A stretch of 64,000 nucleotides of DNA, taken from the NCBI GenBank assembly GCA_050949565.1, contig JBMNFY010000017.1:512001-576000 (forward strand), written 5' to 3'. This document shows positions 38,736 through 57,404 of this stretch, in pieces. Under the pieces are notes generated by a model. The model had not been told where the DNA came from. It was given only the letters and a program-made list of their open reading frames with translations, and searched no databases. Numbering within the stretch: position 1 is the stretch's first letter; each line of letters opens with the position of its first letter. This DNA comes from Kiritimatiellia bacterium. Its GTDB lineage: Bacteria; Verrucomicrobiota; Kiritimatiellia; RFP12; UBA1067. Both the position numbers and the translations under genes were made by a program.

Positions 38736-38755
38736 TTTGAATGAGGACGCTTTCC

Positions 38756-39820: not shown

Positions 39821-39846
39821 AACGGCTCTTCTTTCATTTTCACGTG

Positions 39847-39952
39847 TTTAAACTCCTTTCCCTGTTGACAGCCTTCAGCCGAGCGTGATATAAAAACCGG
39901 TATACAGCTTTTAATAACCTGTGTTTTACCAGTATGGCGAAAGGAGTCAGGC
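39847..39952 (+). promoter_or_regulatory. Promoter/operator/RBS block, paralog of 43508-43613
   Basis: TTGACA (39865), TGATATAAA extended -10-like element, AAAACCGGTATAC candidate operator, AAGGAG RBS. Confidence 0.7.
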
Positions 39953-40662
39953 ATGCATGCTCAAGGACGGAGTTCGCGGTTCGCTATTTCGATCAGGACG
40001 GGAGCGGTCATCGGGCCGCCCCTTCTCACGGGGAGTATGCGACCCTTGTATTCTGCTGCATGTTCGTTATCCACTCTCGTGCCGAAACCGTGGCCTTGTG
40101 GAAGCTAGATTATGAGGCCGGTGATAGTGTCTTGAACGCGCGTTGCCTACTGAACCCGGCGCACGATTTGTTACCTTCGGGTTCCTTATGCGCTCCAGAG
40201 GGAGCCTCACACGACTAAAAACCAGGGAGACACACAATGAAAACCTGCCAGACTAAGAAATGCGCTTGGATGCGTACTCCGCTCATGGTCGTTTCGGTTA
40301 CGTATACAAGTATGGCTCTCGCCCTAGCCTATAACGATGTCACCGCGTGGTGGCATTTCGATTGTGATGCCGATCAGAATGAGCGAGCGGATATGTCAGA
40401 AATCCGTGACCAACGCGATTGGGGCACATCAGCGTTAAAGGGGGCGTCAGGGTATCACGCCACCTCTGTTAACGGTGGTTTGGGGGTGCCCTCATGGACA
40501 AACGAAGTCGTGAGTCCGGCGGGAGGTGCTTTGTATGGAGGGTTTGATCGCTTGTCTCAGTTGGTTGGGCAAACCCATTTTAACCTAGTATCCGCGGTGA
40601 TCACGCCCGGTAAGTGGTATGAGGCAAAGGCAGCAAAGGGGGAAACATGGACAGAAGGGTGA
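39953..40662 (+). pseudogene. Relics of LamG-type surface protein genes
   Basis: 39953 starts MHAQGRSSRFAISIRTGAVIG (paralog of 43614), then frameshifts to AETVALWKLD. The 40237 ORF has a signal peptide and VTAWWHFD but is short and apparently truncated. Confidence 0.6.
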
Positions 40663-42875
40663 TACGGGTGTTGACGGCCGGTGCGCTGACGATGTTCGCG
40701 ATAACAGCCTGCTGTGCGCAGCAGGTGCTGTATGTGGATGCGCAACGCGGCAGTGATCTCCATGACGGAACGCAAGCGAAACCATTTGCATCGCTGGCGC
40801 GGGCGCGCGACGCCGTGCGCGCCCTGAAAAAGGCGAATGCTTTTCCAGAGCGGGGCGTGGTCATCGAGGTGTCCGGCAACTTTTCGCTGGCGACCCAAAA
40901 CTTGGTGCTGGAAGCGCAAGATGGCGGTACTGGACCTGATGCGCCGGTGGTGGTCCGGGCCGGCGCGAGCGGTGCCGTAATCACGGGTGGCCATGCGCTG
41001 CCGCCGGAGGGTTTCCGCAAGGTGACAGACGACGCGACGCGCACCCGCCTGCCCGAGGCCGCGCGCGAGCACGTTGTGGTGTTTGACCTCGCAAGTGTGG
41101 GGGTGGAAGCCTTGGAGCCCCTGCCGGACAAATTCAGCGGATGGCGCGAGATGGAAATCTTCTGCGACGGCAAGGCGATGCGACTGGCGCGCTGGCCGAA
41201 CACCGGCTGGACGGAGATCGTCAAGGTCATTGATCGCGGTGTCAAGCCGGTCGACAAAGCGACCGGCGAATGGGAGCACGGCTACAAAGGAGGCACCTTT
41301 GAATACACGGGCGACGCGCCATCGCGCTGGCGGGTCGACAAAGGGATCTGGATGAACGGTTTCTGGTGTCACGACTGGGCCAATGAAACGCTCAAGATCG
41401 GGACGATCGACACCGCCAAGCGCTGGATCACTTCGGCCGGCATCCACACGTACGGCATCGGCAACTCGTCCAAATGGCGCACGGCCAAACGCCGTTATTA
41501 TGTCTTCAACCTGCTCGAAGAACTTGACGCGCCGGGCGAATGGTATGTGGACCGGGAAAACCGCATGCTCTATTTTTATCCGCCGGACGGCGCGGTTGAT
41601 GCCGTGGTTTTGGCGGTGCAGAAAAAACCGTTGATCCAACTGGTCAAGACGGCTCATGTCAGGCTGGAGGGGCTTCAGTTTGCCTTCAGCATTGGACATG
41701 CGGTCTCCATTCAAGAGTGCGAGAACGTGCTGTTGAAGGAACTGCGCGTGGCGCACATCACGACCGACGGCGTGAACATCCATGGCGGGCGCAACTGCGG
41801 CTTGGACGGGTGTGAAGTCTACGGCACGGGCGGCACAGGCGTGAGGGTATACGGCGGCGACAGGAAATCACTGACCGGCTGCGGCCACTTCGTCACGAAC
41901 TGCCACCTGCATCATTGCGGACGCTTACAGCGCACTCAGGGGAAGTGCTTATCGTTTTTCGGAGTCGGCGTGCGCGTCGCGCACAATCTGATCCATGATT
42001 CGCCTTACGTCGCGGTCATGTACAACGGTAATGACCATGTGTTCGAATATAACGAGGTCCACTCGGCGATGATGGAGAGCGGTGACGGCGGCGGTCTCTA
42101 CACGGGGCGCGACTGGGGGTCGCAGGGGACGGTCATCCGCTACAATTATTTCCATCACTTCGGACAGCCAGGGGTGACGTGGCAGAAAGCGCAGGGATTG
42201 TCGCCGGACTATGAGCCGCTCAAAGAGAGCGTGATGGTCATGGGCGTTTACCTAGATGACTGTGACAGCGGGGAGACGGTCTGCGACAATCTGTTTTTCC
42301 GTACCGGCTGGGCGGCGTTCGTCGGCGGCGGGCGCTACAATACGATTCGCAACAATCTTTTCATCGAGTGTACCTCCGCGTTGCATCTTGACGACCGCGG
42401 TCTGAAACGGGCGCGCCCGGGCGAGGGAACCAAGGACGGCTGGGATCTATCGGCCAAGCTGGAGGCGGTCAACTGGCAGGAGTCGCCGTGGAAAGATCGC
42501 TATCCGCACTTGGTGAACATCATGGAGGACGAGCCGAAGTTGCCGTTGCACAATGTGTTTGAAAAGAACGTGGCCATCAACTGCCCGCGCTTCTTGCAAA
42601 TGCACGGGACGGTCAAAGAGACGGCGGTGCCGCGCTTGACATTCCGTGACAATCTCGTGTTCGGGACGATCCATGCGAAAGACGCCGAGGCCTTTCCCCA
42701 GAACGAAGAGGGGCGGCAGCGCGTTGCATTCATGACGGAGACTTTGCCGGACAGTAACGAACCCGATCAGACCGGATTCAAGGTGCAGGAGAGCGAGATG
42801 TTCCGGCGGCTGGCGCCTTGGTTCGAGCGTATTCCGCTTGAACGCATCGGGCGCAGTGCGCCGCGTGCGAAGTAG
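40647..42875 (+). CDS. Secreted right-handed parallel beta-helix protein (GH141-like architecture)
   Basis: YVDAQRGSD..GT..PFASLARARDAVR, LARWPN, LEELDAPGEWY, DGGGLYTG, GVYLDD. Confidence 0.82.
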   Translation: MDRRVIRVLTAGALTMFAITACCAQQVLYVDAQRGSDLHDGTQAKPFASLARARDAVRALKKANAFPERGVVIEVSGNFSLATQNLVLEAQDGGTGPDAPVVVRAGASGAVITGGHALPPEGFRKVTDDATRTRLPEAAREHVVVFDLASVGVEALEPLPDKFSGWREMEIFCDGKAMRLARWPNTGWTEIVKVIDRGVKPVDKATGEWEHGYKGGTFEYTGDAPSRWRVDKGIWMNGFWCHDWANETLKIGTIDTAKRWITSAGIHTYGIGNSSKWRTAKRRYYVFNLLEELDAPGEWYVDRENRMLYFYPPDGAVDAVVLAVQKKPLIQLVKTAHVRLEGLQFAFSIGHAVSIQECENVLLKELRVAHITTDGVNIHGGRNCGLDGCEVYGTGGTGVRVYGGDRKSLTGCGHFVTNCHLHHCGRLQRTQGKCLSFFGVGVRVAHNLIHDSPYVAVMYNGNDHVFEYNEVHSAMMESGDGGGLYTGRDWGSQGTVIRYNYFHHFGQPGVTWQKAQGLSPDYEPLKESVMVMGVYLDDCDSGETVCDNLFFRTGWAAFVGGGRYNTIRNNLFIECTSALHLDDRGLKRARPGEGTKDGWDLSAKLEAVNWQESPWKDRYPHLVNIMEDEPKLPLHNVFEKNVAINCPRFLQMHGTVKETAVPRLTFRDNLVFGTIHAKDAEAFPQNEEGRQRVAFMTETLPDSNEPDQTGFKVQESEMFRRLAPWFERIPLERIGRSAPRAK

Positions 42876-42880
42876 GACTT

Positions 42881-43048
42881 GATGAATTGCGTAAGGCGTA
42901 CGATACGATGCACGCGCACATTTCTTGGAGTATGGCGGACGCGCTGACGGCGTTTGATGCCGCGACCGCCGCTGCGACTCGGAAAGGTCGTGCGCCCAGC
43001 GATCCGGTGCATGACGCGTTCGCGCAGATCACGGCCCGCTTCACGTGA
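42881..43048 (+). pseudogene. Internally deleted 3' relic of a GntR gene paralogous to 56646-57404
   Basis: Reads DELRKAYDTMH|AHISWSMADALTAFDAATAAATRKGRAPSDPVHDAFAQITARFT*, matching two separated parts of the intact gene. Confidence 0.9.
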
Positions 43049-43055
43049 TGGCTCA

Positions 43056-43509
43056 AACCATGAAACACATGAAACTTCATGAAAGGTTGAGGGCATGAAA
43101 GAAAAGATCACGGCGGTCTATGAAGAGGAGTGCTATCAGATACGCGGGGCCTTGTATGACGTGTACACGGTGCTCGGAACTGGTTTCTCGGAAGAGGTCT
43201 ACCAAGAGGCGCTGGAGAAAGAATTTGCCATGCGCCATATCCCTTTTGTGTCACAGCAAGTCCTGCGATTTCATACAAAGGGGAATGGCTTGCAAAGACC
43301 TACAAAGCAGATCTGGTCTGTTACGACAAAATCATTCTCGAATTGAAAGCTGTCAAAGCCCTGCTTTCCGAGCACGAGGCGCAACTCATCAATTACCTTA
43401 AAGCAACCGGAATGCGTCTGGGCTTTCTCGTCAACTTTTGTCATTTTCCCAAGGCAGAGATACGCACATATGTAAACTAATTTCATGAAGTTTCATGTGT
43501 TTCATGGTT
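43056..43509 (+). mobile_element. GxxExxY element copy 1 bounded by 29-bp terminal inverted repeats
   Basis: AACCATGAAACACATGAAACTTCATGAAA at 43056-43084 and its exact reverse complement at 43481-43509. Confidence 0.75.
43095..43480 (+). pseudogene. GxxExxY PD-(D/E)XK protein, frameshifted
   Basis: GTGFSEEVY motif. One G is missing at about 43268 (CTGCGATTT vs CTGCGGATTT in the intact copy). Confidence 0.9.
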
Positions 43510-43613
43510 TAAACTCCTTTCCCTGTTGACAGCCGCCAGCCGAACGTGATATAAAACCGGTATACAGCTTTTATTAACCTGTGTTTTAACCGGTGTGGCA
43601 AGAGGAGTTAGGT
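43508..43613 (+). promoter_or_regulatory. Promoter/operator/RBS of the LamG gene
   Basis: TTGACA at 43526, TGATATAAA, AAAACCGGTATAC at 43553-43565, GAGGAG RBS. Confidence 0.7.
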
Positions 43614-46600
43614 ATGCATGCTCAAGGACGGAGTTCACGGTTTGCTGTTTCAATCAAGACGGGGGCGGTCATTGGGCTGTTCCTCCTTATGGGCGCACAT
43701 GGTGCACGTGCCGCCGACGCAGTGCTCAGTTTCAGTGCCAGTGGCCAGCGGGTTGTCACCACCGGCCAGATCACGGCCAATGACTTCACAGCGGAGGCGT
43801 GGTTCAAGCTATCCAGCTACATCTCTGAAAACCAGATCTTTTCGCAATACCGCGACGATGCCGGTCGCTTTATTGTCGGTATCAAGGACAAGGTCGCGGG
43901 CATGTTCATCGGCGGCACCTGGATGACGGGCAGCGGTACGATCCCGCTCAATACTTGGACTCACATTGCTGTCTCGCGTAGCAACACGACCTGGACCATC
44001 TACATCAACGGCCAGTTCTATACGAACGGCGTCCATAACGCGAATCCTCTCGCCAACACAACGTTTGCAATCGGCGCGATCGGCACCACGGCACCGGGCT
44101 TCCGGGGAGAGATCAGCGATGTGCGTGCCTGGAATACGGTCCGCTCTCAAGCGCAGATCGCTGGCGGGTTGGACACGCGCCTTACCGGCACTGAGGCAGG
44201 ACTTGCGCACTACTGGCCGCTGAATGAGGGCTTAGGTAGTACGGTCGCGGATCTTGCTGCTGGAGCCTCAGGAACGCTCGGTGCCGGTGTTGCTTGGGCC
44301 GTTAGTACCGATCTGCCGTTCTCGACGGCGCGACAGGACGGCACCGTTGCCTACTGGCGGCTGGACGCAGATGCGTCCGGTACGTTGGACACGCGCGACT
44401 TTATCGGCAACGCCCGCTTGTCGAGCGGTCTCGATATAACCGCGCACACAACAACCATGCAGGCCAGCCGCAATCAGGCGTTCAGCGGCCAACCGCCGAA
44501 CAGCACGCTGCCCCTGCCGAACGGTAACTCCGGTTCGGCGTACGCGCAGGCCAACGGTGCCTGTCTGCGCGTCACCGATCTGGGACGCCACTTGGAAATC
44601 ACCAACAGCTTTACGGTCGAGGGTTGGATCGCTCCGCACCGGCAAGATTATGATACAGACATCCAGTACATCGCTAATACGCGTGTTTTCACCAAGGGAT
44701 GGGCCTTCGCGCTCAAACGCATGTCGGACGGCACGCGCAGGCTCGTCATCTACGCTGGGGATGACAGTGGCGTTCAAGTTGGCGACGCATCGCTCTCCGG
44801 CGACCTGGCGGCGTGGGCGGACACCTGGCGGCATGTGGCGCTGGTCTATGATGCAAATGCGGGCGAACAGGCGCAGGGTGCCTGGCGGTGCTATCTGGAT
44901 GGCGAGCTGCAGGGCGCGGCCACCAATCAACAGGCGCGTGTCGGCACCACTGCCTCCGAGTATTTCCATTTGGCCGGCCGCATTGGCGGCCACCCCGCTA
45001 CTTTCTGCGGTTATCTGGATTGTTGGCGTGTGAGCCAGGCCGCGCTCGTACCCGAGCAGTTTCTCAACGCGACCGACGGCGCGGTCGCCGCGACCGACGT
45101 GCTGGCGCTATGGCCGCTGAATTCAACGGACGGGGTCTACTTCGATGGTTCGGACGTGACCGGCAACTGGTCGTTCGGCACACCGTTGACAGCCTTGCAC
45201 AAGGCCACAGGCAGCACATCGCAGGCGGTAACCCCGCTTCCCAATCCGGATGCGTCGGCCGCATTTCGCGGTGATCCCGCCGTCAATACTGGCAGTCTGG
45301 TGTTCAACACACCGGCGGCAGCAGCCAAGCGCGCGTATCTCGCCTCCGACAATTATACCGTGCGCGACACGCTCTGTTACACCAACAGCTTTACACTGGA
45401 GGGGTGGTTCTATCGGACACTGAATCCGGGCGGCTGGCAACTTCTCTTTGCGACGGGCGGGGCACCGGTGTTCAGCAATCCGATCGTCGGCCTGTCACTC
45501 AATTTCACCTACCGGACCAACGGTTACGTGCTCTTCGCGGGTGGTGGGTGGCCGGGGACGCTCGTGAGCGATGTGTCGTTCGGCACTGGGTCGATTGATA
45601 ACGAACTGAACGTCTGGCGGCATGTTGCGTTGGTCTACGACGTGACCGTCGGCAAGGGGACCTGGTCGCTCTATGTGGACGGCACGCTCAAAGGCAGCAT
45701 CGAAAACAACACAGTGCCGACCCGTTCCGTACCGGCTTACTTCTATATCGGCGGGCGCCCGTGGTCGGACAACGCGTTCAACGGCGCGATCGATACCGTG
45801 CGCCTGACGCGCGGCGTGCTCGCGCCGTCGCAGTTCCTCAATGCTGCAGGCGCACCGCCGCCCGCTCCGCCCGCGCCCGCGACGGTCGCCTATTGGAAGC
45901 TGGATGACGACGGCGCCGCGCTCGATGCCTCCAGCCAGGTGGAGCCGCGCTACGGCTTCGCGCTGGATGCGTACGCGCCTCGCCGCTTCGGCGGCGCAGT
46001 TCAAGCGCTTCGTCCCGGTGCCGGACACGACGCCCGGCTTCATCGGCGAACCCGCGCGCCAACGCCGGTTCGGCGGCTTTTGACAGTGCCAATTATTTGC
46101 GTGTGCAGAGTCTTGGCATCCGAGTCGAAATGGATTGCGCTTTTACGGTCGAGGGCTGGATGTTCTGGAGCAACCGGGCCGCCCGTGCGGTGCAAACGAT
46201 CGCGGGAACGCGCTTCGACGCGACGTACGGCTGGAGGCTGTCGCTTGAAAAGAACGGCGACGCGGCGGCGTTCCGGCTCTTCTGTCGTACGCCGAATCAG
46301 ACGCCGCTGATTGATGCCACTTTCGCTTTTGATGCCGCTGGACTAGCCGACGCGTGGCACCATCTGGCGCTGACCTTTACGCCCCGCCGCAATGATACCG
46401 GCACATGGGAACTCTTCGTTGACGGGGTCTCGGTCGGTACGCTTGAAAACATCTTCTATCCCGCCGTGCCTCACCGGAGCCACTGGTTTGCGCTGGGTGG
46501 GCAGGCCGATGGCACCGATTCGTCGTTCGACGGACTGCTCGACTGCTGGCGCGTCTCGGAGGGTGCGCGGACGCCCGACACCTTCCTGTATTTGGGGTAT

Positions 46601-46630
46601 GACAAAGGGACACTGCTGAAGATCCGCTGA
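43614..46630 (+). pseudogene. Multi-LamG (concanavalin-like) secreted protein with two frameshifts (~45980 and ~46050); ends GTLLKIR
   Basis: Four LamG-like repeats (FTxEGW, WRHVALVYD, LYVDG, FxGxLDxxR). The fourth repeat passes through three successive frames. May be a sequencing error in an intact gene. Confidence 0.75.
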
Positions 46631-46636
46631 TGAGGG

Positions 46637-47063
46637 AACCATGAAACACATGAAACTTCATGAAAGTTTTTTTGAGGGCATTGCTCGGGTTTGTTTAACC
46701 ACAGAGAACACAGAGAGCACAGAGTTTTTTGAGGGGGCGGGGCTGGCCGCAAATTTATTGCGACCACCTAGTGGTCGCAATGATGAGTGTAAAAGCACTG
46801 CTCGGTTGTTTCACGCGAAGGCGCGAAGACGCGAAGGTTGGAGGGCGAGTGTCCCCACGAGCCGCCTTCCGCTGAGCGGAAGGATGGGAGGGACGAGCGT
46901 CGCTCGTCCGCGGGCAAGCAGACGCTTGCCCCTCCCTGCGCTTCGCAAGCCAGATGACACGAGATGGAGGGCGGCATCTGGGTGGCGCACAAAATTGAAT
47001 TGGGGTGCGGGCTCCGCTAAAAAGGAGTTCTTGATTTCATGAAGTTTCATGTGTTTCATGGTT
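46637..47063. mobile_element. Non-coding 427-bp element with the GxxExxY-type terminal inverted repeats (copy A)
   Basis: Forward motif 46637-46665 and reverse motif 47035-47063; interior is a mosaic of other repeats. Confidence 0.8.
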
Positions 47064-47120
47064 AAAAAAGTCCTCCCTCTAATCGGGATTGGAACGAAAA
47101 ATGTGACGAAAGGATATGTG

Positions 47121-48272
47121 ATGAAAAAAACACTTGTTGTTTCGACTGTTAGCCTCTTGTTTGCTGCGGCTGCTTTCTGCCAGCCGCCTAAGGCCCCGCC
47201 ACCGGAGCATGCCGGTCCGCCGCTGCCGCGTCATGCAGTCACCAACCGCGCTTTCACTGGCATCTCCAGCCTGGCGGTCGCACCCAACGGTCGGCTCTGG
47301 GTAACCTGGTATGCCGGCCACACGCCGGGCGAGGACCGCAATAACTATGTGGTGCTCGCTACCAGCGGTGATGGTGGCGCGACTTGGAAGGAACTGCTCA
47401 CTGTGGACCCCGACGGCGGGGGGCAACGTCGCACCTTCGATCCCGAAGTGTGGATTGCGCCGGATGGTCGGCTACGCTGGATATGGAGCGACCGTACCAT
47501 GCCGCACAGCGGTGTGTCGTCCGACGCGATCTGGATGATCGTGCTCGACGATCCCGCGTCGGAAAGCACTGCATGGCACCCGCCGGTATATGTCACGCAG
47601 GGCGTGATGATGTGCAAGCCCATCGTGCTCTCTTCAGGCGAGTGGGCGCTGCCGGTCTGTACGTGGTATTCGGAGAACAGTTCGAAAATGGTGGTCTCCA
47701 CTGACAACGGCAAGACGTGGTCGGTGCGCGGCGGCGCGAACATGCCTAGGGAAGACCGCTGTTTTGACGAGCACATGTTTGTGGAACGCAAGGACGGCTC
47801 GATCTGGTGTCTGTCGCGCGCCAAATCCGGCATCCGCGAGGCGGTCTCGACCGACCGTGGCGCAACATGGTCGCCGCTGGAGCCGTCGCCGATCCAGCAC
47901 CCGTCGGCACGCTTCTTCATCACGCGGCTGCTCTCCGGCAACCTGCTGCTTGTGAAGCACGGTCCGATTGAAAGGAAGACCGGTCGTTCGCATCTCATGG
48001 CCTTTGTGTCGAAGGACGATGGCCGGAGATGGGAGGGCGGCCTGATGCTCGATGAGCGGAACGGTGTCTCCTATCCCGACGGCCAGCAGGCGGCGGACGG
48101 CACGATCTACATCACATACGATTTTGACCGTATCGGCAAACGCCATATCCTCTTCTCCACCTTCCGCGAGGAGGACGTGCTGGCCGGCAAGCCGGTTTCC
48201 GGCGCGGTACGTCTGCGCCAGATCGTGAGCGAGGGATCGGGTGGTGTCAAACGGTCTGAGGCCGCTAAATGA
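47121..48272 (+). CDS. BNR/Asp-box sialidase-family (GH33-like) protein
   Basis: Signal peptide; Asp boxes SGDGGATW, STDNGKTW, STDRGATW, SKDDGRRW; VSYPD. Confidence 0.87.
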   Translation: MKKTLVVSTVSLLFAAAAFCQPPKAPPPEHAGPPLPRHAVTNRAFTGISSLAVAPNGRLWVTWYAGHTPGEDRNNYVVLATSGDGGATWKELLTVDPDGGGQRRTFDPEVWIAPDGRLRWIWSDRTMPHSGVSSDAIWMIVLDDPASESTAWHPPVYVTQGVMMCKPIVLSSGEWALPVCTWYSENSSKMVVSTDNGKTWSVRGGANMPREDRCFDEHMFVERKDGSIWCLSRAKSGIREAVSTDRGATWSPLEPSPIQHPSARFFITRLLSGNLLLVKHGPIERKTGRSHLMAFVSKDDGRRWEGGLMLDERNGVSYPDGQQAADGTIYITYDFDRIGKRHILFSTFREEDVLAGKPVSGAVRLRQIVSEGSGGVKRSEAAK

Positions 48273-48699
48273 AACCATGAAACACATGAAACTTCATGAA
48301 AGTTTTTTTGAGGGCATTGCTCGGGTTTGTTTAACCACAGAGAACACAGAGAGCACAGAGTTTTTTGAGGGGGCGGGGCTGGCCGCAAATTTATTGCGAC
48401 CACCCAGTGGTCGCAATGATGAGTGTAAAAGCACTGCTCGGTTGTTTCACGCGAAGGCGCGAAGGCGCGAAGGTTGGAGGGCGAGTGTCCCCACGAGCCG
48501 CCTTCCGCTGCGCGGAAGGATGGGAGGGACGAGCGTCGCTCGTCCGCAGGCAAGCAGACGCTTGCCCCTCCCAGCGCTTCGCAAGCCAGATGACACGAGA
48601 TGGAGGGCGGCATCTGGGTGGCGCACAAAATTGAATTGGGGTGCGGGCTCCGCTAAAAAGGAGTTCTTGATTTCATGAAGTTTCATGTGTTTCATGGTT
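48273..48699. mobile_element. Non-coding 427-bp element (copy B)
   Basis: Direct repeat of copy A with about 5 substitutions seen by eye. Confidence 0.8.
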
Positions 48700-48710
48700 T
48701 AAGGAGAGGA

Positions 48711-50504
48711 ATGATGAGAGAGTTGATGATAGTCGCGACCGTAACGATCACACTGTGCGGGCTGGTACCGCTTCACGCGCGCGCTAACGCGCCGCTTGTC
48801 TCCTGCGCGTTGTTGAGCGGGCCGGGCGCGGCGCTTGAGAAGATCACCGGTGTGCATCCCGGCGTTATCGAAGAGGGGGCCACCGTGTTCACCGACCGCG
48901 CCTTCGTCTACCATCGGCCGCCCGCTGGCCTCAAGGGTATGCCTGCGTTGGTGGGATCGATCGATTGCGACGTGCCGGTCACCGTGTCCAAAGACGGCCT
49001 GCTCACCGTGCTCACGCCAGCACCGGACATCAAGGGCGCGTTCTGCTCAAATGCCCCCGAATTGGAAGCGCGCGGCTTCACATGGGTTCAGTCTCCGGCG
49101 CAGTTCCAATTGTTCGGAGAGAATCCTGTCGACACCGTGCGCATTTATCAGAAAGCCGTCACGCGCGGCGAGTCGTTCACCTTTAAGAAATGGGTCGTGC
49201 TGGCGGGTGTCGATTTCGCAGGCCAAGATTTCTTCACGCCGAACGCACGGGTGGCGCGTGTGGTCGAGGCGCTGAAGGCCGACACGACCCGTCTGGACGC
49301 AAAGCTAAACGCGCAGGACATTCTGGTCAACCGTCCCGACTATGTGGTGTTCATTCCCCGGCAGCCGCGCGACAAGACAAAGCGCGATCCCGCTCGGCCT
49401 GGCGACACCTACAACGACCACTTTCAGGTGATCGAGCACGAGGGCATGCTGTACGCCTTCTGGACGCAAGCCTCGCGCGAGGCGGATATTGACCAGCACA
49501 TCGCTTTCTCAAAAAGCGCGGACAAAGGCGAGAGCTGGAGCGAGCCCGTGGTTCTGGCCGGTTCGCCCAACAAGAAAAACCCGGCGCTGTTGGCGAGTTG
49601 GCAACAACCAATGATCAGCGCGTCGGGCCGTATCTACTGCCTGTGGAATCAACAAACCACCAGCCGCGGGCCGCACTGTGGCCAGATGTTCGGCGCGTAT
49701 TCTGATGACAAGGGAGACACATGGTCGGCACCGAAAATGATACCGCTGAAGCGCAGCATTCTGGATGATCCCGATCCATTGATACCACCGAGCTGGTGCA
49801 ACTGGCAGCGCCCGTTGCGTCTGGGCAAAGGGGGGCGTTACCTGGTGGGCGTCTCGCGGCACGGTAAACTGCCGGACGCCAAACGGGGCGGATGCTATAT
49901 TGAGTTCTTGCAGTTTGACAACATCGACGACAATCCCAAGGTCGAGGACATCCGGCTGAGCTGGTTTTCGAGCGACGAGAAGGTACTGCGCGTCAGCCAC
50001 GAAAAATTCGGCGATGCTGCAGAGGAGGTCGGTCTCGTTAAGCTGCCGGACGGTCGTCTTTTCGGCATCATGCGCACCGGCGCGGGGTACCCCTACTGGA
50101 CGCAGAGCCGTGATAACGGCGTGACCTGGACGCAGCCCCGGCCGCTCCTGGATCGCGACGGCGGCAAGCCCTATCTGCACCCGCGCTCGCCCTGTCCGAT
50201 CTACGACTGGAAGGGGTGCGAGGCCGCCAGCGGCTACTACTTTGCCCTTGTCCACAACACCTTCGACTTTGACGGCAAAAGCGAGTATCAGCATCGCGGC
50301 CCGCTCTATCTGATCGCGGGCCGGTTTAACCCAAACGCCGAGCAGCCGGTCGAGTTTGCGCCGCCGAAACTTTTCGCCGAGCGCAAGGGCGGCAACTCGT
50401 TCTACACGAGCTATACGATCATGGACGGCAAAGGCATCCTCTGGTTCCCCGACCACAAGTTTTATCTGCTCGGACGTGAGATCGGGGAGGAGTGGTTTAA
50501 GTAG
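48711..50504 (+). CDS. BNR/Asp-box sialidase-family protein with an extra N-terminal module
   Basis: Signal peptide; SADKGESWS, SDDKGDTWS, SRDNGVTWT. Confidence 0.82.
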   Translation: MMRELMIVATVTITLCGLVPLHARANAPLVSCALLSGPGAALEKITGVHPGVIEEGATVFTDRAFVYHRPPAGLKGMPALVGSIDCDVPVTVSKDGLLTVLTPAPDIKGAFCSNAPELEARGFTWVQSPAQFQLFGENPVDTVRIYQKAVTRGESFTFKKWVVLAGVDFAGQDFFTPNARVARVVEALKADTTRLDAKLNAQDILVNRPDYVVFIPRQPRDKTKRDPARPGDTYNDHFQVIEHEGMLYAFWTQASREADIDQHIAFSKSADKGESWSEPVVLAGSPNKKNPALLASWQQPMISASGRIYCLWNQQTTSRGPHCGQMFGAYSDDKGDTWSAPKMIPLKRSILDDPDPLIPPSWCNWQRPLRLGKGGRYLVGVSRHGKLPDAKRGGCYIEFLQFDNIDDNPKVEDIRLSWFSSDEKVLRVSHEKFGDAAEEVGLVKLPDGRLFGIMRTGAGYPYWTQSRDNGVTWTQPRPLLDRDGGKPYLHPRSPCPIYDWKGCEAASGYYFALVHNTFDFDGKSEYQHRGPLYLIAGRFNPNAEQPVEFAPPKLFAERKGGNSFYTSYTIMDGKGILWFPDHKFYLLGREIGEEWFK

Positions 50505-50537
50505 AGCTTAGAAAGGTGGACAGCGCGGTTGGAATGA

Positions 50538-50738
50538 GACCATGAAACACATGAAACTTCATGAAAGGTGGGGCATGGTTAGTGTATTGGTGCGTTAGTT
50601 CATCAGTGCATTAATTTGGTTCCATCGGAATCGGGATCGGGACCGAAATCGATAGAGAGTGAATAGTGGGGGGCTGTGCGGACACAAACCGCTAAAAAGG
50701 AGTTCTTGATTTCATGAAGTTTCATGTGTTTCATGGTT
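50538..50738. mobile_element. Non-coding 201-bp element with the same terminal inverted repeats
   Basis: Forward motif 50538-50566 and reverse motif 50710-50738. The right sub-terminus CCGCTAAAAAGGAGTTCTTGA is shared with the 427-bp copies. Confidence 0.8.
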
Positions 50739-50766
50739 TAGAACGGTATGAAAAAGGAGAGGAAAG

Positions 50767-52899
50767 ATGAGAGGGATGATGATAATCGCGGCCATAACGA
50801 TCATGCTGTGCGGGTTGGCACCGCTTCATGCACAGCCGCGCGATACGCCCTTGCCGGGACGCGGTGCCGCACTCTTCGTGCAAGGGATTTTTGAGCAGGA
50901 TACGTTTACCGAAGGTGCGCGACTCTTCCCGGACCGCACTTACACAGTGGCTGAAGCGCCCGCTTGGTTGCGCGGGTCGACCTTCCTGCGCGCAAGCATT
51001 GATGGCAACCTTACCGTGACGGTCAAGCAAGCCGGTGTGTTGACGGTGATTACGGCCGATCCCGCCGATCCGCTCGCCACGCATTCGCAATGCACGCGTC
51101 TGGAGGAACTGGGGTTTGTCTGGGTCAAGGCACCGGCGACCTTTCAGCTTTTCGGCAAAGCGGCTCACGACATCAGCCGCACTTATCAGAAACTGGTCGC
51201 GCAGGACGAAACGTTCAACTTTCCCAAGTGGACGGTGTTCGCCGGTTTCTCCGAGGTGACCGGGCCGCCGCTGCCGTTCGACCTTCTGCCAGAGCGCGGC
51301 GAGCGACTTTACAACGGCATCGAACTTTCAACCAACTGGCCGCCGCGCACCGTGAACACGACGAACTGGGCGCCGATGGCCGTGCCGTATCTGACCGCGC
51401 CGCCGGAGTTGATCCATATTGATGTGGGGCGGCAACTCTTTGTGGACGACTTCCTGATTGCGACCAGCACGTTGCAGCGCGTCTTCGGTATGCCTGAGAA
51501 GTACACCGGCAACCCGGTGCTGCGTCCAGAGACCGAACTGGAGTTGAACGGCATCCGGAACGCCGCAGCCGTGCCGAAGGGTGGCGGGCTCTGGTGGGAT
51601 CCCTACGAACGGCTGTTCAAGCTCTGGTATGAGGCGGGCTGGATCCACACCATTTGTTACGCCACCAGCACAAACGGTCTGCACTGGGAGCGGCCGAAGT
51701 TGGACGTGGTGCCGGACACCAATCAGGTGCTGCCGCCGGACTTGACACCAGACTCCTGGACCGTGGTGCCCGATTGGGAGGCGACCGATCCGCTGCAGCG
51801 CTATAAAATGTTTATGCGCGGGCCCGGCGGGACAATGCCCGGGGTGAGTATGACTTCGGCGGATGGCATTCACTGGGTGAATCGTGTAGTTACTGGCCAC
51901 ACCGGCGATCGTAGCACCATGTTCTATAATCCATTCCGGCGCAAATGGATCTACAGCCTGCGGAGCGGCTGGCGCGGACGGTCACGCGATTATAGGGAGA
52001 GCGACAACTTCCTGCGCGGTGCTTCTTGGAGCGCGGCGGATACCGTGCGTTGGTTGGCCGTGGATGAGAAGGACCCCAAGGATCCGAAAATCCAGCGGGT
52101 GCCGCAACTCTACAACTTTGACGCGGTAGCCTACGAGAGCATCATGCTGGGTGCATTTGAGATTCACCACGGACCGGAGAACGACGTCTGCATGAAAGTC
52201 GGTTTGCCGAAAATCACGGAGTTGAATTTCGCCTACAGCCGCGACGGGTTCCACTGGTCGCGGCCTGACCGCAGAGCGCACATCCGCGCGGAACGTTGGG
52301 GCAGCGGCAAATGGGATACCGGCTATGTGCAGTCGCTCGGCAATCTTTGCACGATTCAGGGCGACAAGCTCTGGTTCTATTACTCCGGATTTCAAGGCGA
52401 CACCAATCGCCTCAGCGGCGACTGGTTGCAGAACGGCATGTACGACAACGGTGCCATGGGCATCGCCTTCTTGCGGCGCGATGGCTTCGCGGCTATGCGG
52501 GCGGGAGACGGTGGTGGAGAACTCGTCACGCGGCCATTGCTCTTCAGCGGTGCGTGTGTGTTTGTGAATGTGGCGTGTCCACAAGGCGAGTTGCGCGTGG
52601 AGGTGCAGGATGTCGAAAGCGAGACGGCCATTCCGGGTTTTGCGCTGGCCGAGTGCCGCCCCGTCTCCGTCGACAGCACCCTGCACCGCATCACCTGGCA
52701 AGACGCCGACACCGTCAGGGCTTTGCGTGGCCGACCGGTCCGTTTCCGTTTCGCATTGTCCAACGGCGCGCTGTACGCTTTCTGGGTCAGTCGTGATGAA
52801 AGCGGTCGCAGCGACGGCTATGTAGCGGGCGGCGGACCGGGATACACCGGGCCGACTGACACGGTGGGGGCTGCCGCGTTGTTGCAAGATGAACCATGA
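50767..52899 (+). CDS. Secreted five-bladed beta-propeller glycoside hydrolase (GH32/43-like) with N-terminal module
   Basis: RQLFVDDFLI, GNPVL, FKLWY, YATSTNGLHW, SADGIHW, YSRDGFHW, LRRDGF. Stop codon lies inside the first repeat unit. Confidence 0.78.
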   Translation: MRGMMIIAAITIMLCGLAPLHAQPRDTPLPGRGAALFVQGIFEQDTFTEGARLFPDRTYTVAEAPAWLRGSTFLRASIDGNLTVTVKQAGVLTVITADPADPLATHSQCTRLEELGFVWVKAPATFQLFGKAAHDISRTYQKLVAQDETFNFPKWTVFAGFSEVTGPPLPFDLLPERGERLYNGIELSTNWPPRTVNTTNWAPMAVPYLTAPPELIHIDVGRQLFVDDFLIATSTLQRVFGMPEKYTGNPVLRPETELELNGIRNAAAVPKGGGLWWDPYERLFKLWYEAGWIHTICYATSTNGLHWERPKLDVVPDTNQVLPPDLTPDSWTVVPDWEATDPLQRYKMFMRGPGGTMPGVSMTSADGIHWVNRVVTGHTGDRSTMFYNPFRRKWIYSLRSGWRGRSRDYRESDNFLRGASWSAADTVRWLAVDEKDPKDPKIQRVPQLYNFDAVAYESIMLGAFEIHHGPENDVCMKVGLPKITELNFAYSRDGFHWSRPDRRAHIRAERWGSGKWDTGYVQSLGNLCTIQGDKLWFYYSGFQGDTNRLSGDWLQNGMYDNGAMGIAFLRRDGFAAMRAGDGGGELVTRPLLFSGACVFVNVACPQGELRVEVQDVESETAIPGFALAECRPVSVDSTLHRITWQDADTVRALRGRPVRFRFALSNGALYAFWVSRDESGRSDGYVAGGGPGYTGPTDTVGAAALLQDEP

Positions 52900-53112
52900 A
52901 ACACATGAAACTTCATGAAAAGGCGGGGTGTGGTTAGGGAACCATGAAACACATGAAACTTCATGAAAAGGCGGGGTGTGGTTAGGGAACCATGAAACAC
53001 ATGAAACTTCATGAAAAGGCGGGGTGTGGTTAGGGAACCATGAAACACATGAAACTTCATGAAAAGGCGGGGTGTGGTTAGGGAACCATGAAACACATGA
53101 AACTTCATGAAA
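52892..53112 (+). repeat. Tandem array: five 29-bp motifs separated by four identical 19-bp linkers (48-bp period)
   Basis: Motif starts at 52892, 52940, 52988, 53036 and 53084; linker AGGCGGGGTGTGGTTAGGG. Confidence 0.95.
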
Positions 53113-53122
53113 GGTGAGGGGT

Positions 53123-53509
53123 ATGAAAGAAAAGAGCGTGATGGTTTATGAAGAGGAGTGTTATCAAATACGCGGGGCCTTGTATGAGGTATATACGGTG
53201 CTCGGGACTGGTTTCTCGGAAGAGGTTTACCAAGAGGCACTGGAGAGAGAGTTTGCTGTGCGCCATATCCCGTTTGTATCACAGCAAGTCCTGCGGATTT
53301 CATACAAAGGAGAATGGCTCTCAAAGACCTACAAAGCAGATCTGGTCTGTTACGACAAAATCATTCTCGAATTGAAGGCTGTCAAAACCCTGCTTCCTGA
53401 GCACGAGGCGCAACTCCTCAATTACCTTAAAGCAACCGGAATGCGTCTAGGTTTTCTCGTCAACTTTTGTTGTTTTCCCAAGGCGGACATACGCACGTAT
53501 GTAAACTAA
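53123..53509 (+). CDS. GxxExxY family protein (PD-(D/E)XK nuclease-like), intact
   Basis: GTGFSEEVYQEAL, ADLV..KIILELKA, HEAQLLNYLKATG..GFLVNF. Reverse motif directly after the stop (53510-53538). Confidence 0.92.
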   Translation: MKEKSVMVYEEECYQIRGALYEVYTVLGTGFSEEVYQEALEREFAVRHIPFVSQQVLRISYKGEWLSKTYKADLVCYDKIILELKAVKTLLPEHEAQLLNYLKATGMRLGFLVNFCCFPKADIRTYVN

Positions 53510-53545
53510 TTTCATGAAGTTTCATGTGTTTCATGGTTGAAAAGT

Positions 53546-54796
53546 ATGAAAAAAATTAAACAACTCCTTTCGGTTCTTGGTCCCGGCATCTTTGCGATCG
53601 GTTACACGATCGGCACCGGCAGCGTCACCTCGATGGCGAAGGCCGGCAGTCAGTACGGACTGCAACTGCTCTGGGTGCTCTTCCTGATCTGTCTGTTTTC
53701 AGGTGTGCTGATGGAGGCGTACGGACGCATGGCGGCGGTGACCGGTGGCACCTCGTTGCACGCCGTGAAGCGTCATCTGCCGTTCGGCCGCACGCTGGCC
53801 ATCCTGATTCTGATCGGCGTGGCGACGGCGCAGTACACCTGTCTGGGCGGAATCTTGACGCTATCGTCCGGCGCGATCTACGAGACGCTCGCCCTTTACG
53901 TTCCCTCCTTGCCAAAGGAGAACTACGCTGCGACACTGGGCATCGCCGTGGTGCTGATCGCGTTGATGTACAGCCTGCTCATGATCGGACGCTACAGCTT
54001 CTTTGAGAAAGTGCTGGCTTTCTTTGTGATGATCATGGGAATCACCTTCTTGATCTCAATGTTCGTGGTCTGGCCGTCGCCGGAAATCCTCAAACAGGCG
54101 CTGATCCCATCAATCCCCGATGAGCCGGGCGCACTGCTGATGATTGCGGCCTTTGTGGGTACCACGATGGCGGCGCCCACATTCGTCACCCGACCGTTAC
54201 TGCTGAAAGAGAAGGGGGTGGGCGTAGCTGACCTCAAGGAACAAACGCTCGATTCCGTAGTCTCCGCGTCGCTGATGTTTTTGATCAGCGGCTCGATCAT
54301 GGTTGTCGCGGCCGGCGCGCTCTACGCGCACGGCAAGGAGATCGTCAAGATCCTCGACATGGTTCACACGCTCGAGCCGCTAGCTGGCCGATTCGCGGTC
54401 GCGCTGTTCATGACGGGGACGCTGAGCGCCGGTCTCTCTTCGATCTTCCCGATCTTGATGGTCGCCCCGCTGCTGATCTCCGACTATCGCGTGGGGCACA
54501 TGGAGCCGCGCAGCAAGACCTTCCGGGTGCTCTGTCTGGTGGCGGCGTGTGCAGGCTTGATCGTGCCGGCGCTGGGTGGCCGCAATCCGGTGGCGGTTAC
54601 GATCATGGCACAGATCTCCAATGTTTTTGTGTTGCCGCTGACTGTCGCCGTGATCTTGGTGCTGGTGAACCGGCGCGATCTGATGGGAGAGCACCGCGCC
54701 GGTCCGTTGCTGAACATCGGCTTGGCGCTGGCCGGTCTTTTCGCGTGCATCATCGCCGTGACCGGCCTGCGCGCGCTACTTGATGCATGGTTTTGA
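53546..54796 (+). CDS. NRAMP-superfamily membrane transporter (atypical)
   Basis: LGPGI..IGTGSVT..AGSQYGLQLLW, AFVGTT, about 11 hydrophobic segments, LMGEH. Confidence 0.82.
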   Translation: MKKIKQLLSVLGPGIFAIGYTIGTGSVTSMAKAGSQYGLQLLWVLFLICLFSGVLMEAYGRMAAVTGGTSLHAVKRHLPFGRTLAILILIGVATAQYTCLGGILTLSSGAIYETLALYVPSLPKENYAATLGIAVVLIALMYSLLMIGRYSFFEKVLAFFVMIMGITFLISMFVVWPSPEILKQALIPSIPDEPGALLMIAAFVGTTMAAPTFVTRPLLLKEKGVGVADLKEQTLDSVVSASLMFLISGSIMVVAAGALYAHGKEIVKILDMVHTLEPLAGRFAVALFMTGTLSAGLSSIFPILMVAPLLISDYRVGHMEPRSKTFRVLCLVAACAGLIVPALGGRNPVAVTIMAQISNVFVLPLTVAVILVLVNRRDLMGEHRAGPLLNIGLALAGLFACIIAVTGLRALLDAWF

Positions 54797-54811
54797 CCGG
54801 AAAGGTGTCGT

Positions 54812-55462
54812 ATGAAAGAGGACATTGAGAAGTTGGTACGCGAGTCGCGCATCATTGCGATCATCCGTGGTTTTAAGCCAGACATCTGCCTGAAGCTTGC
54901 TGATGCCTATGCGAGGGGTGGTATCCGGATGGTTGAAGTCACGTTCAACCAAGCGTCCCCCGAGACGTGGGCGGATACTGTCGCAGCGATTCGGGTGATC
55001 CGCGAACATTTTTTCGGAGATATCCGGGTCGGCGCGGGCACGGTTCTCACTGAAGAGCAACTGACGATGATGGAGGATGCGGGCGGCGAGTATATGGTCA
55101 CGCCGAATGTCAATCCGTCTCTCATCCGCGAGTGCGTCCGTCGCGGGTGCGCCGCGATGCCCGGGGCGCTCACGCCGAGTGAGGCTGTCGACGCTTGGGA
55201 GGCGGGCGCGAGTTTCGTGAAAATCTTCCCGGCGGGTTCACTCGGTGCAGGCTACGTCGAGGCATTAAGCACGCCGTTGTCGCATATTCCGTTTCTCGCG
55301 GTTGGCGGGGTGGGGCCTGACAATGTCAGAGACTTTATGGCGGCTGGCTGCGCTGGCGCGGGTGTCGGCGGGAACCTCACGAACAAAGAGTGGATTGCCG
55401 CAGGCGAGTGGGACAAGATTGCCGCCGTTGCTAAAACTCTGATCGACAATTCCCGTATCTAA
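54812..55462 (+). CDS. eda: KDPG/KHG aldolase
   Basis: IIAIIRG, VEVT, VGAGTVL, PGALTPSE, VKIFPA, AVGGV. Confidence 0.93.
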   Translation: MKEDIEKLVRESRIIAIIRGFKPDICLKLADAYARGGIRMVEVTFNQASPETWADTVAAIRVIREHFFGDIRVGAGTVLTEEQLTMMEDAGGEYMVTPNVNPSLIRECVRRGCAAMPGALTPSEAVDAWEAGASFVKIFPAGSLGAGYVEALSTPLSHIPFLAVGGVGPDNVRDFMAAGCAGAGVGGNLTNKEWIAAGEWDKIAAVAKTLIDNSRI

Positions 55463-55492
55463 ATCAATCCTTCAACAAAGGAGAACCAGACA

Positions 55493-56518
55493 ATGAAAAT
55501 CGTTACTTTTGGCGAAATCATGATGCGCCTTAATCCAGAGGGTTACCGTCGGTTCACGCAAGCGGACAAGTTTGAGGTGAGTTATGCGGGCGGCGAGGTG
55601 AACGTTGCCGTGTCGCTTGCGAACTACGGCATGGAGGTGTCCTTCGTGACGAAACTCCCTGAGAATCCGCTGGGCGAGGCGGCACGGAATGCCGTGCGCC
55701 ATTTCGGCGTTGAAACGAAGGATATCGTCTGGGGCGGCCCTCGGCTCGGCACCTATTTTGTGGAAAAGGGGGCTTCGCAGCGTGCGTCGAAGGTCGTTTA
55801 TGATCGCGCCGGATCATCGATTGCGCTCGCGAAACGCACGGACTTCGATTGGGCGAAAATCCTGCGGGGCGTAAAATGGTTTCACTTTACCGGCATCACG
55901 CCCGCGCTTGGTGGCGAGTTACCTGCGATCTGTCTGGATGCGCTTGAGTATTGCAAGGCGCACAAGATTACGGTTTCCTGCGACCTCAATTATCGCGGCA
56001 AGCTTTGGACCAGGGCTGAGGCTAAAGCATGCATGGCGAAGCTCGTTCCGTATGTCGATGTCCTCATTGCAAACGAGGCGGACGCGGCGGATGTTTTTGG
56101 GATCGTCGGCAAGGGCACCGATGTCGAGGGCGGAAAACTCGACAAGGCGGGGTATGTCTCTGTCGCCGAGCAGTTGGTGGAGCGTTTTGGCGTGAAGAAA
56201 GTGGCGATCACGCTCCGCACTTCGCTTTCCGCCTCTGACAACCTATGGGCGGGTGTGCTTTACGACGCAAAGACGAGAGAGCCCGTGTTTTCGACAGAAT
56301 ACAAACTCCACATCGTCGACCGCGTCGGCGGCGGGGACAGCTTTGGCGGGGGACTCATCTATGCGCTTGTTACGGGCAAGAACCCGCAGGCGGCGATTGA
56401 TTTCGCAGTTGCGGCAAGCGCCCTTAAACACTCAATCGAGCACGACTTCAATCTTGTTTCCGTCAAAGAAGTGGAGGCACTGGCCGCAGGCGGCGGAACA
56501 GGACGCATTCAGCGGTAA
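55493..56518 (+). CDS. kdgK: 2-keto-3-deoxygluconate kinase (PfkB family)
   Basis: FGEIMMRL, GGEVNVA, VVYDRAGS, DLNYRGKLW, DRVGGGDSF, TGRIQR. Confidence 0.92.
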   Translation: MKIVTFGEIMMRLNPEGYRRFTQADKFEVSYAGGEVNVAVSLANYGMEVSFVTKLPENPLGEAARNAVRHFGVETKDIVWGGPRLGTYFVEKGASQRASKVVYDRAGSSIALAKRTDFDWAKILRGVKWFHFTGITPALGGELPAICLDALEYCKAHKITVSCDLNYRGKLWTRAEAKACMAKLVPYVDVLIANEADAADVFGIVGKGTDVEGGKLDKAGYVSVAEQLVERFGVKKVAITLRTSLSASDNLWAGVLYDAKTREPVFSTEYKLHIVDRVGGGDSFGGGLIYALVTGKNPQAAIDFAVAASALKHSIEHDFNLVSVKEVEALAAGGGTGRIQR

Positions 56519-56550
56519 GAGGGCGTGATACGCGGCACCTTTTTTAGACG

Positions 56551-56645
56551 TGAAGCTTCATGTATGCCGTGACCAGCCTGCGCGCTCTGCTTGTCGCATG
56601 GTTGGGTTAGGTCTCTCCTAACCATGAAACACATGGTATGAGCTA
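56551..56645. repeat. Scar cluster: degenerate motif, 38-bp copy of the NRAMP gene 3' end, and a collapsed element footprint
   Basis: 56566-56603 matches 54755-54792 at 33/38 nt; 56620-56635 is a partial motif AACCATGAAACACATG. Confidence 0.8.
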
Positions 56646-57404
56646 TCACGTGAAGCGGGCCGTGATCTGCGCGAGCGCGTCATGTACCGGATCGCTGGGT
56701 GCGCGGCCGCTCCGAGTCGCGGCGGCGGTCGCGGCATCAAACGCCGTCAGCGCGTCCGCCATACTCCAAGAAATGTGCGCGTGCATCCAGCGAGCCGCAG
56801 CGCTCGGGTCGCCGCGCCGTATCGCACGCTCGACCTCGGCATGCTGACGCCACGCCCAGGCAACGTGGCGCAAGTCGCGCTTGTGGCTGTACTGGCCGAA
56901 GAAGAGATTACGCTGGTAGACGTTGGTTACGATCTTGATGGCCAAGTGGTTGCCGGCCGCTTTGAGCAACAGCAAATGGAACGAGAGGTCTGCCGTGAGA
57001 AATGTAACCAGCGGTCGGCCCTCCAGCAGCGGACGACGCCGCGTACGCAGACTGACAGCCATCGCATGCATCGTCTCGCACGCCTTGCGCAATTCATCGC
57101 GGTTGGCTTTGGTGAGGTTCCGCACCGCACGTTCCATGGCGAAGGTCTCAAGTGCCATCCGCACTTCAAAGGCATCGATGAGCTGACGCCGGTCCGGCCG
57201 CGCGACATACGTGCCGCTGGACGGGATCTGATAGAGCAGCCCCTCCTCCGTCAGCCGACGCACCGCCTCGCGCACCGGCGTACGGCTAATCCCGCACTCG
57301 GCAGCAATCGTCTGCTCGGAGAGCTTTTGCCCTGCCACCAGTTCGCCACTCACCAATTTCTTGCTGATGTGCCGATAGGCGACATCACTCAACGTTTCAC
57401 CCAC
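56646..57404 (-). CDS. GntR family transcriptional regulator (FadR/FCD subfamily)
   Basis: GQKLSEQTIA..GISRTPVREA HTH; VRMALE, DLSFH, HAEV..AI, MHAHI FCD motifs. Confidence 0.92.
   Translation of the reverse strand: MGETLSDVAYRHISKKLVSGELVAGQKLSEQTIAAECGISRTPVREAVRRLTEEGLLYQIPSSGTYVARPDRRQLIDAFEVRMALETFAMERAVRNLTKANRDELRKACETMHAMAVSLRTRRRPLLEGRPLVTFLTADLSFHLLLLKAAGNHLAIKIVTNVYQRNLFFGQYSHKRDLRHVAWAWRQHAEVERAIRRGDPSAAARWMHAHISWSMADALTAFDAATAAATRSGRAPSDPVHDALAQITARFT

Follow-up and report, generated by a model that had tools for sequence, protein, structure and literature searches.

A Repeat Footprint Behind a GntR Gene at One End of an Inversion in a Kiritimatiellia Genome: Probable Remnant of a Collapsed GxxExxY Cassette

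The GntR Sites and Their Flanks

The window analyzed here, a stretch of 64,000 nucleotides from a Kiritimatiellia bacterium (contig JBMNFY010000017.1, positions 512,001 to 576,000), carries two related sites behind GntR regulator sequences. At one of them, a GntR relic is followed by a GxxExxY gene between inverted copies of a 29-bp module, termed M; at the other, an intact GntR gene is followed by part of the same module. The features of the filled site and of the short site are listed below by their positions in the window.

42881..43048, plus strand: GntR relic, composed of an internal 36-bp piece (42881-42916, 89% match) and a 3' piece (42907-43048) ending in TGA (43046-43048)
43049..43055, plus strand: junction letters TGGCTCA, from stop codon to left arm, missing from the empty sites of relatives
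43056..43084, plus strand: left arm, module M (AACCATGAAACACATGAAACTTCATGAAA), 29 bp, three CATGAAAC-type units, 29/29 against the genome consensus
43095..43480, plus strand: GxxExxY gene (TIGR04256 / PF13366), frameshifted, in two pieces of 44.1 and 78.1 bits
43481..43509, minus strand: right arm, M in exact reverse complement, 29/29 complementary to the left arm
43510..43514, plus strand: TAAAC filler, which together with 43051-43509 stands in place of the empty-site (G/A)AAAATT; promoter P1 follows from 43515
56646..57404, minus strand: intact GntR/FCD regulator gene (PF00392 and PF07729), stop codon TGA at 56648-56646
56636..56645, minus strand: post-stop junction TAGCTCATAC, also seen in filled cassettes that follow a GntR copy (L039 and others, TGGCTCATAC)
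56620..56635, plus strand: footprint (junction J2), positions 1-16 of M; on the minus strand, CATG (56635-56632) and TGTTTCATGGTT (56631-56620)
56566..56619, plus strand: original Nramp 3' end including its stop codon, plus 9 nt; the same flank abuts a near-full M beside gene X in G004

The genome holding the window (G000, 4.66 Mb) was searched on both strands and compared with same-genus genomes (G001, G003, and G006) and further relatives, which are fragmented metagenome-assembled genomes. Sequences compared with the locus are given L-numbers (L036 is Ga0255344_1007859, L003 is G003:C397, and L004 is G006:C90); the Ga02553xx contigs are not mutually independent, their samples probably being related. 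The metagenome runs X2, X13, X16, and X18 were represented by assembled Logan contigs only, most of which break inside modules. Where gap extension was free, alignments contained small spurious blocks, and long anchors alone were relied on.

The two pieces of the GntR relic abut with an overlap of about 10 nt. Its 3' end and that of the intact copy are 94% identical over 156 bp (554907-555062 of the contig), and the internal piece (554881-554916) is 89% identical. Behind the relic TGA stands TGGCTCAAAC (43049-43058), and the minus strand after the intact gene reads TGA-TAGCTCATAC-CATG-TGTTTCATGGTT. A preliminary description had read the short site as the filled site 43049-43509 without its interior, and both strings are indeed present as it gave them. 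The two sites have a common left junction (stop, T[A/G]GCTCA[T/A]AC, CATG), the missing part extending from the first CATG of the left arm to the second-last CATG of the right arm. Beyond CATG, homology resumes for 12 nt and then ends. To the right of this 12-mer the two sites are not homologous, and the right flank of the footprint is instead the old downstream flank of Nramp, moved there by inversion, so the simple filled/empty pair that had been proposed does not hold. Together with 56636-56638, the footprint forms a 19-bp mini-hairpin, ACCATG-N5-CATGGT (-5.5 kcal/mol, z -2.9).

The GxxExxY gene of the filled site is a pseudogene with a 1-nt deletion near 43267. The frameshift letters recur in a contig of the independent run X18 (43117-43642), and contigs of X16 and X18 bridge both junctions of the site. 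The promoter region (ttgaca ... ccggtatacagctttta ...) is itself duplicated, with P0 (39854-40032) and P1 (43515-43700) being 85-88% identical and standing before two sugar-related gene sets; its GGTATAC-type motif may be the GntR operator.

Module M and the GxxExxY Cassettes of the Genome

Module M occurs in 154 copies with at most four substitutions, 135 of them exact, and the majority sit next to other triple-unit modules in arrays that are mosaic or tandem. Small slippage variants are frequent, with 2-3 nt lost at ACACATG or one unit lost. M and an inverted M stand closer together than 500 bp at five places in the genome, all of them within the window (43056-43509, 46637-47063, 48273-48699, 50538-50738, and 52892-53538); two hold GxxExxY genes and three hold mosaics of other repeats. 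The pairs at 46637-47063 and 48273-48699 enclose near-identical 369-bp cargos with no Pfam match. Other repeat modules make up these cargos in a mosaic fashion (429 BLAST pieces across the genome), and the summed contig depth of the cargos in run X2 is 35-70x that of neighboring stretches.

At G000:C10:272687-272702, a second M is cut off right after position 16, i.e. after its second CATG, and is followed by unrelated DNA; the G004 orthologue has a full M minus CA and a different downstream sequence, which has only a 55-bp match elsewhere in G000. Another repeat, palindromic and about 50 bp long (gtggcatgggcgtcccgc CCATGAAACAC gggcaagatgcccgtgccac; e.g., G000:C1:8067 and C17:832420), has 11 letters in common with M, is present in well over 100 copies, and looks REP-like.

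The reference intact cassette of the genome has the following layout.

52892..53538, plus strand: five tandem M (52892-53112, period 48), GxxExxY gene (53123-53509, 132.1 bits), inverted M (53510-53538)

Its left arm is thus amplified to five tandem M, compared with two in L039. The two M-armed GxxExxY cassettes are 94% identical, and their homology is bounded exactly by the outer M ends. As a unit, the cassette combines a TIGR04256 gene above the profile cut-off of 35 bits, inverted arms of repeated short units, and a site that is empty in relatives. Six GxxExxY loci are present in the genome, each with arms of its own, different module family, and the palindromic core found in M is missing from the other five arm families. 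The five intact proteins share 32-54% pairwise identity.

The cassette cargo matches TIGR04256/PF13366 alone. GxxExxY is a nuclease-fold (PD-(D/E)XK-type) protein with a D...ELK motif visible in its sequence; no solved structure matching it by sequence was found, and the literature searched offered no explanation of the element. PF13366 is entered as ‘Unknown’ (PMC3424549). Thirteen reading frames between 40.6 and 60 kb were scanned, with small ORFs partly covered, and none matched a transposase or recombinase family.

States of the Locus in Relatives

The ancestral layout, with GntR, promoter, and LamG operon on one strand, is preserved in G001, G003, and G006, and an 815-aa gene, GntR, promoter, and LamG are contiguous in L040 and L036. 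Because GntR lies directly upstream of the same promoter and LamG gene in relatives, the relic site represents the original position of GntR. The following states were found in the interval from the GntR stop codon to the promoter.

Empty: TGATG(G/A)AAAATT-TCC, or TGATAAAGATGACCGATTT-TCC in G001, with no module and no CATG; G004:C170, the relic in G002:C313, L036, L039-L043, and G001
Other insert: roughly 590 bp, encoding a HicA toxin; G003 and G006
Filled: TGATGGCTCAAAC, M, gene, inverted M, TAAAC; the G000 relic and L038
Filled, after an open GntR copy: TGATGGCTCATAC, M twice in tandem, gene interrupted by a TAA nonsense codon, inverted M, TAAAC; L036, L039, L042, and L043
First collapsed state: left-arm letters 1-11 joined at AAAC to the gene end (AAAC-TAA), full right arm retained; G002:C313:1-120
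Second collapsed state: the footprint; G000 and L037

Contig G002:C313 begins within the GntR 3' end, and the gene upstream of its collapsed cassette lies outside the contig. The near-identical contig L037 carries the same footprint state as G000. Comparison of the filled site (TGATGG-CTCA[M..M']TAAAC-TCC) with the empty site (TGATGG-AAAATT-TCC) revealed no target duplication. Since G002 and L039 lack the relic-site cassette at the orthologous position, and the outer junction letters of this cassette equal those of the one behind GntR, it was probably copied between paralogous flanks by homologous recombination.

The left junction of the footprint, including its diagnostic T, also occurs in the filled cassettes after the GntR copy in L036, L039, L042, and L043. 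The precursor predicted for the footprint (GntR copy, TGA, TGGCTCATAC, M, GxxExxY gene, and inverted M) is therefore present in metagenome contigs, which makes cassette loss the best reading of the footprint. The intact GntR gene of G000 resembles the cassette-less copy #2 in L036 until ~65 nt before its end and then continues with the junction of copy #1; this combination of a copy #2 body with the post-stop junction of the cassette-bearing copy #1 points to a join between the two copies before the footprint arose.

The preliminary description had regarded the element as dynamic. On an evolutionary time scale this is borne out by the empty, filled, and two collapsed states among close relatives, whereas ongoing switching is not visible in the contigs. 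No alternative joint state occurs in the four metagenome runs, where none of the 15 joints listed skips 43051-43514 or differs at 56.6 kb, although contigs cannot show rare variants. Given this single junction state, the events are old and fixed in these populations.

The spot between GntR stop and promoter appears to be an insertion hot spot. The ~590-bp insert (L003 2270-2870, and L004) has no repeat modules and encodes the HicA toxin (PF07927, 27 bits) and an upstream 63-aa ORF with no Pfam match. The GntR region is also duplicated repeatedly in some strains, which have three GntR copies or relics in a row (L036 1-3350 and L039 1-5270) in the order copy #2, promoter, LamG fragment, copy #1, cassette, P0, 742-aa gene, relic, and P1. 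The cassette genes at the locus decay independently: the one after GntR copy #1 has a CAA-to-TAA nonsense mutation (L039, ~1950), and the copy at the G000 relic site has the frameshift.

The 16.8-kb Inversion

The footprint lies at one end of an inverted segment, and the other end, J1, is a second altered copy of M.

39854..56619: 16,766-bp segment in inverted orientation when compared with G001, G004, and metagenome contigs
39832..39853, minus strand: J1, a decayed inverted M (TTTCATTTTCACGTGTTTAAAC) between the gene X terminator and promoter copy P0; the other inversion end

Gene X (38741-39766) and Nramp are convergent in G004:C38 and G001:C549, and G004 has a near-full inverted M between the X terminator and the flank aggagagacctaaccc..., the same flank that borders the footprint in G000. 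The order in G000 is X, J1, P0, operons, and Nramp on the plus strand, followed by the J2 footprint and GntR on the minus strand. At J1, a single inverted M has lost 4 nt and 8 nt and carries one substitution, with no trace of cargo. The segment is thus inverted relative to the outgroups with both ends in inverted M copies, as in a repeat-mediated inversion. Contigs from other samples bridge both junctions (53511-56751 in X2 and 55424-56787 in X13; 39300 to ~40800 in both), so the inversion is not an assembly error, and the footprint itself is bridged by contigs from three studies (X2, X13, and L037). Since the right half of the footprint comes at least partly from the module that followed Nramp, the two GntR sites are not plain alleles of one another.

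Within the old Nramp 3' end lies a 1.8-kb block with KDPG-aldolase (PF01081) and PfkB-kinase (PF00294) genes (54812-56518), and about 40 nt of the Nramp end are duplicated on both sides of the block (54755-54796 and 56566-56606). The block is lacking in G004 and G001. Gene X and the PfkB gene (55493-56518) were considered as a duplicated flank, both encoding 341 aa, yet they are unrelated.

Origin of the Footprint

The footprint is probably a collapsed GxxExxY cassette (M, gene, and inverted M) located at the inversion junction, a reading to which we assign a probability of about 0.65. A cassette would formerly have stood between GntR and the promoter of the sugar-utilization operon that came after it. 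Recombination between its right arm and the inverted solitary M downstream of Nramp would have produced the 16.8-kb inversion and brought the Nramp flank to the cassette. The interior would then have been deleted from the first CATG of the left arm to the second-last CATG of the right arm. This deletion was most likely driven by the host and stimulated by the hairpin, either through replication slippage or through palindrome processing with rejoining at the 4-nt microhomology.

The left breakpoints of the two remnants are 7 and 11 nt from the start of the left arm, and both remnants keep the base of the stem, with an 11-bp stem in G002 (-12.5 kcal/mol, z -3.9) and 5-6 pairs in G000. Breakpoints at the stem base fit polymerase stalling at the foot of a hairpin, and polymerases are reported to slip in vitro on templates that combine a hairpin with short direct repeats (PMC4134008). 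The number of steps counts against the proposed origin, as the history comprises the join of GntR copies #2 and #1, the inversion, the collapse at J2, and the decay of J1. Among the relatives examined, no genome with an inverted but uncollapsed intermediate was found.

The main rival, an unlikely if quite conceivable one, is that the footprint is a direct product of the inversion, generated in one step when the left arm after GntR and the solitary M beyond Nramp were joined at CATG microhomology by illegitimate rejoining or by a template switch during replication, with the cassette interior passing to J1 and being lost there. The footprint does lie exactly at the inversion end point, M[1-16] is contiguous with the Nramp-side flank as in G004, and modules are truncated at both junctions; the number of events is equal to that of the preferred explanation. 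However, the losses at J1 are small, derive from a single inverted M, and leave no cargo behind, and an ordinary homologous route to the inversion was available in the form of two inverted identical 29-bp repeats.

CATG as a Junction Point

In the preliminary description, the palindromic CATG was regarded as the point at which the element is cut or exchanged. Direct repeats of at least 4 nt that are common to M and its reverse complement amount to nine maximal ones, and all nine contain CATG. Because the direct repeats shared by a sequence and its own reverse complement are limited to palindromic sequence, any arm-to-arm microhomology deletion in this cassette must land at CATG, and a junction at this tetranucleotide alone cannot tell slippage apart from a programmed cut. 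The arms also offer a common repeat of 8 nt (TTCATGAA), yet the junction uses 4 nt, a point in favor of a programmed cut.

The independent collapse of the same cassette in G002:C313:1-120 was joined at AAAC, which is the kind of outcome that had been named beforehand as speaking against a programmed event, namely other collapsed copies breaking elsewhere. A common core, as used in site-specific recombination of the attC, dif, or invertase type, is accordingly lacking, as one of the two large collapses is at CATG and the other at AAAC, and the insertion sites have no such core. The proposal that the gene is lost or gained by exchange between repeats is retained for loss, as seen in the collapsed cassettes, and fails for gain at CATG since empty sites have neither module nor CATG. 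Partial motifs collected throughout the genome included no other footprint of this kind, and among the nine possible CATG x CATG products searched for in G000 the footprint was the sole site. A search of 31 family genomes for M[1-16] with any base but A behind it gave three hits, comprising the two G000 sites and one substituted full module in G049, and no second footprint.

A programmed cut at CATG by an enzyme of the element is thus not supported. This explanation, in which cleavage and ligation would presumably be performed by the PD-(D/E)XK-type GxxExxY protein, is improbable in our estimation. It would account for the CATG junction and for the terminal truncations of M in the genome, both of which (the footprint and C10:272687) end exactly after the second CATG, and it is in keeping with a nuclease-fold cargo bearing a D...ELK motif and with the private module family that arms each of the six loci. 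On the other hand, arm symmetry forces the junction to CATG, the G002 collapse used AAAC, and empty sites lack CATG; neither the nine possible products nor the 31 family genomes supplied a second footprint, the other five arm families have no palindromic core, the cassette genes at the relic site and in L039 are pseudogenes, small slippage variants of M are common, and alternative joints are absent from the contigs of four metagenome runs.

The idea of a site that was never filled, its 19-bp hairpin being either a separate short piece of module or a palindrome resembling cassette ends by chance, deserves hardly any credence: eight ACCATG-N(0-14)-CATGGT hairpins exist in the genome, comparable to control hexamers (1-10), but only this one of the eight derives from M and has its loop letters, and a filled precursor with the same junction exists, which effectively refutes this reading. 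An exact 16-mer would be expected by chance about 0.002 times in 2 x 4.66 Mb (arithmetic), and the footprint adds to it the shared GCTCA(T/A)AC junction. A chance origin is further made unlikely by the position of M[1-16], which is the exact homologue of the left arm of the filled copy, and by the occurrence of M[1-16] without the remaining M at two sites genome-wide (the footprint and C10:272687).

Comparison With Known Systems

A collapsed cassette as the source of the footprint invites comparison with several known elements. Precise and nearly precise excision of Tn10 and Tn5 is replication slippage between short direct repeats, stimulated by a hairpin. As in nearly precise excision, long inverted repeats bound the deleted cassette, the junction falls in a short direct repeat, and the remnant keeps part of the inverted repeat; by analogy, no function of the element would be needed. 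In the present case, the arms are complementary at 29/29 positions (also in L039), the junction repeats are 4 nt long (CATG in G000 and AAAC in G002), and the base of the stem is kept. Unlike Tn10 and Tn5, the cassette is not a transposon, has no target duplication, and has arms that share only direct repeats with the palindromic CATG core. Cut-and-paste transposon excision differs further, as the locus has no target-site duplication, no transposase match among the reading frames scanned, and no recurrent footprint.

Module M resembles REP/BIME and REPIN-RAYT sequences and the dispersed repeats behind inversions and deletions (PMC2817692) in that all are short, high-copy intergenic modules that occur in mosaic arrays and serve as end points of rearrangements. 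The M modules differ from REP/BIME and REPIN-RAYT in being triple tandem units rather than single hairpins and in bracketing a PD-(D/E)XK-type gene, and no RAYT-type tyrosine transposase was present among the 13 reading frames scanned. The intervening sequence (IVS) of the Coxiella 23S rRNA gene is likewise a small selfish insert with a decaying ORF, complementary ends, horizontal acquisition, and precise insertion spots (PMC4990558). In contrast to the IVS, the cassette lies between protein genes, its cargo is GxxExxY rather than S23p, and its changes are loss and inversion at the DNA level.

Significance of the Allelic Series

GxxExxY genes between inverted repeat arms are widespread, and the locus described here offers a rare allelic series at one insertion site, consisting of an empty state, a filled state, a paralogous filled state, two collapses with mapped junctions, and an operon-scale inversion. 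The series documents that a cassette can enter without target duplication, that it decays quickly through frameshift, nonsense mutation, and collapse, and that its arms are hot spots of rearrangement. A bolder and rather speculative idea, to which we give little weight, is that the GxxExxY nuclease acts on the triple-unit modules and, by cutting and rejoining at CATG, would remove cassettes, truncate modules, and invert operons; the two of two truncations after the second CATG would then be the signature of the nuclease. If this were true, the modules and the GxxExxY gene would represent a small nuclease-plus-repeat system that remodels gene order.
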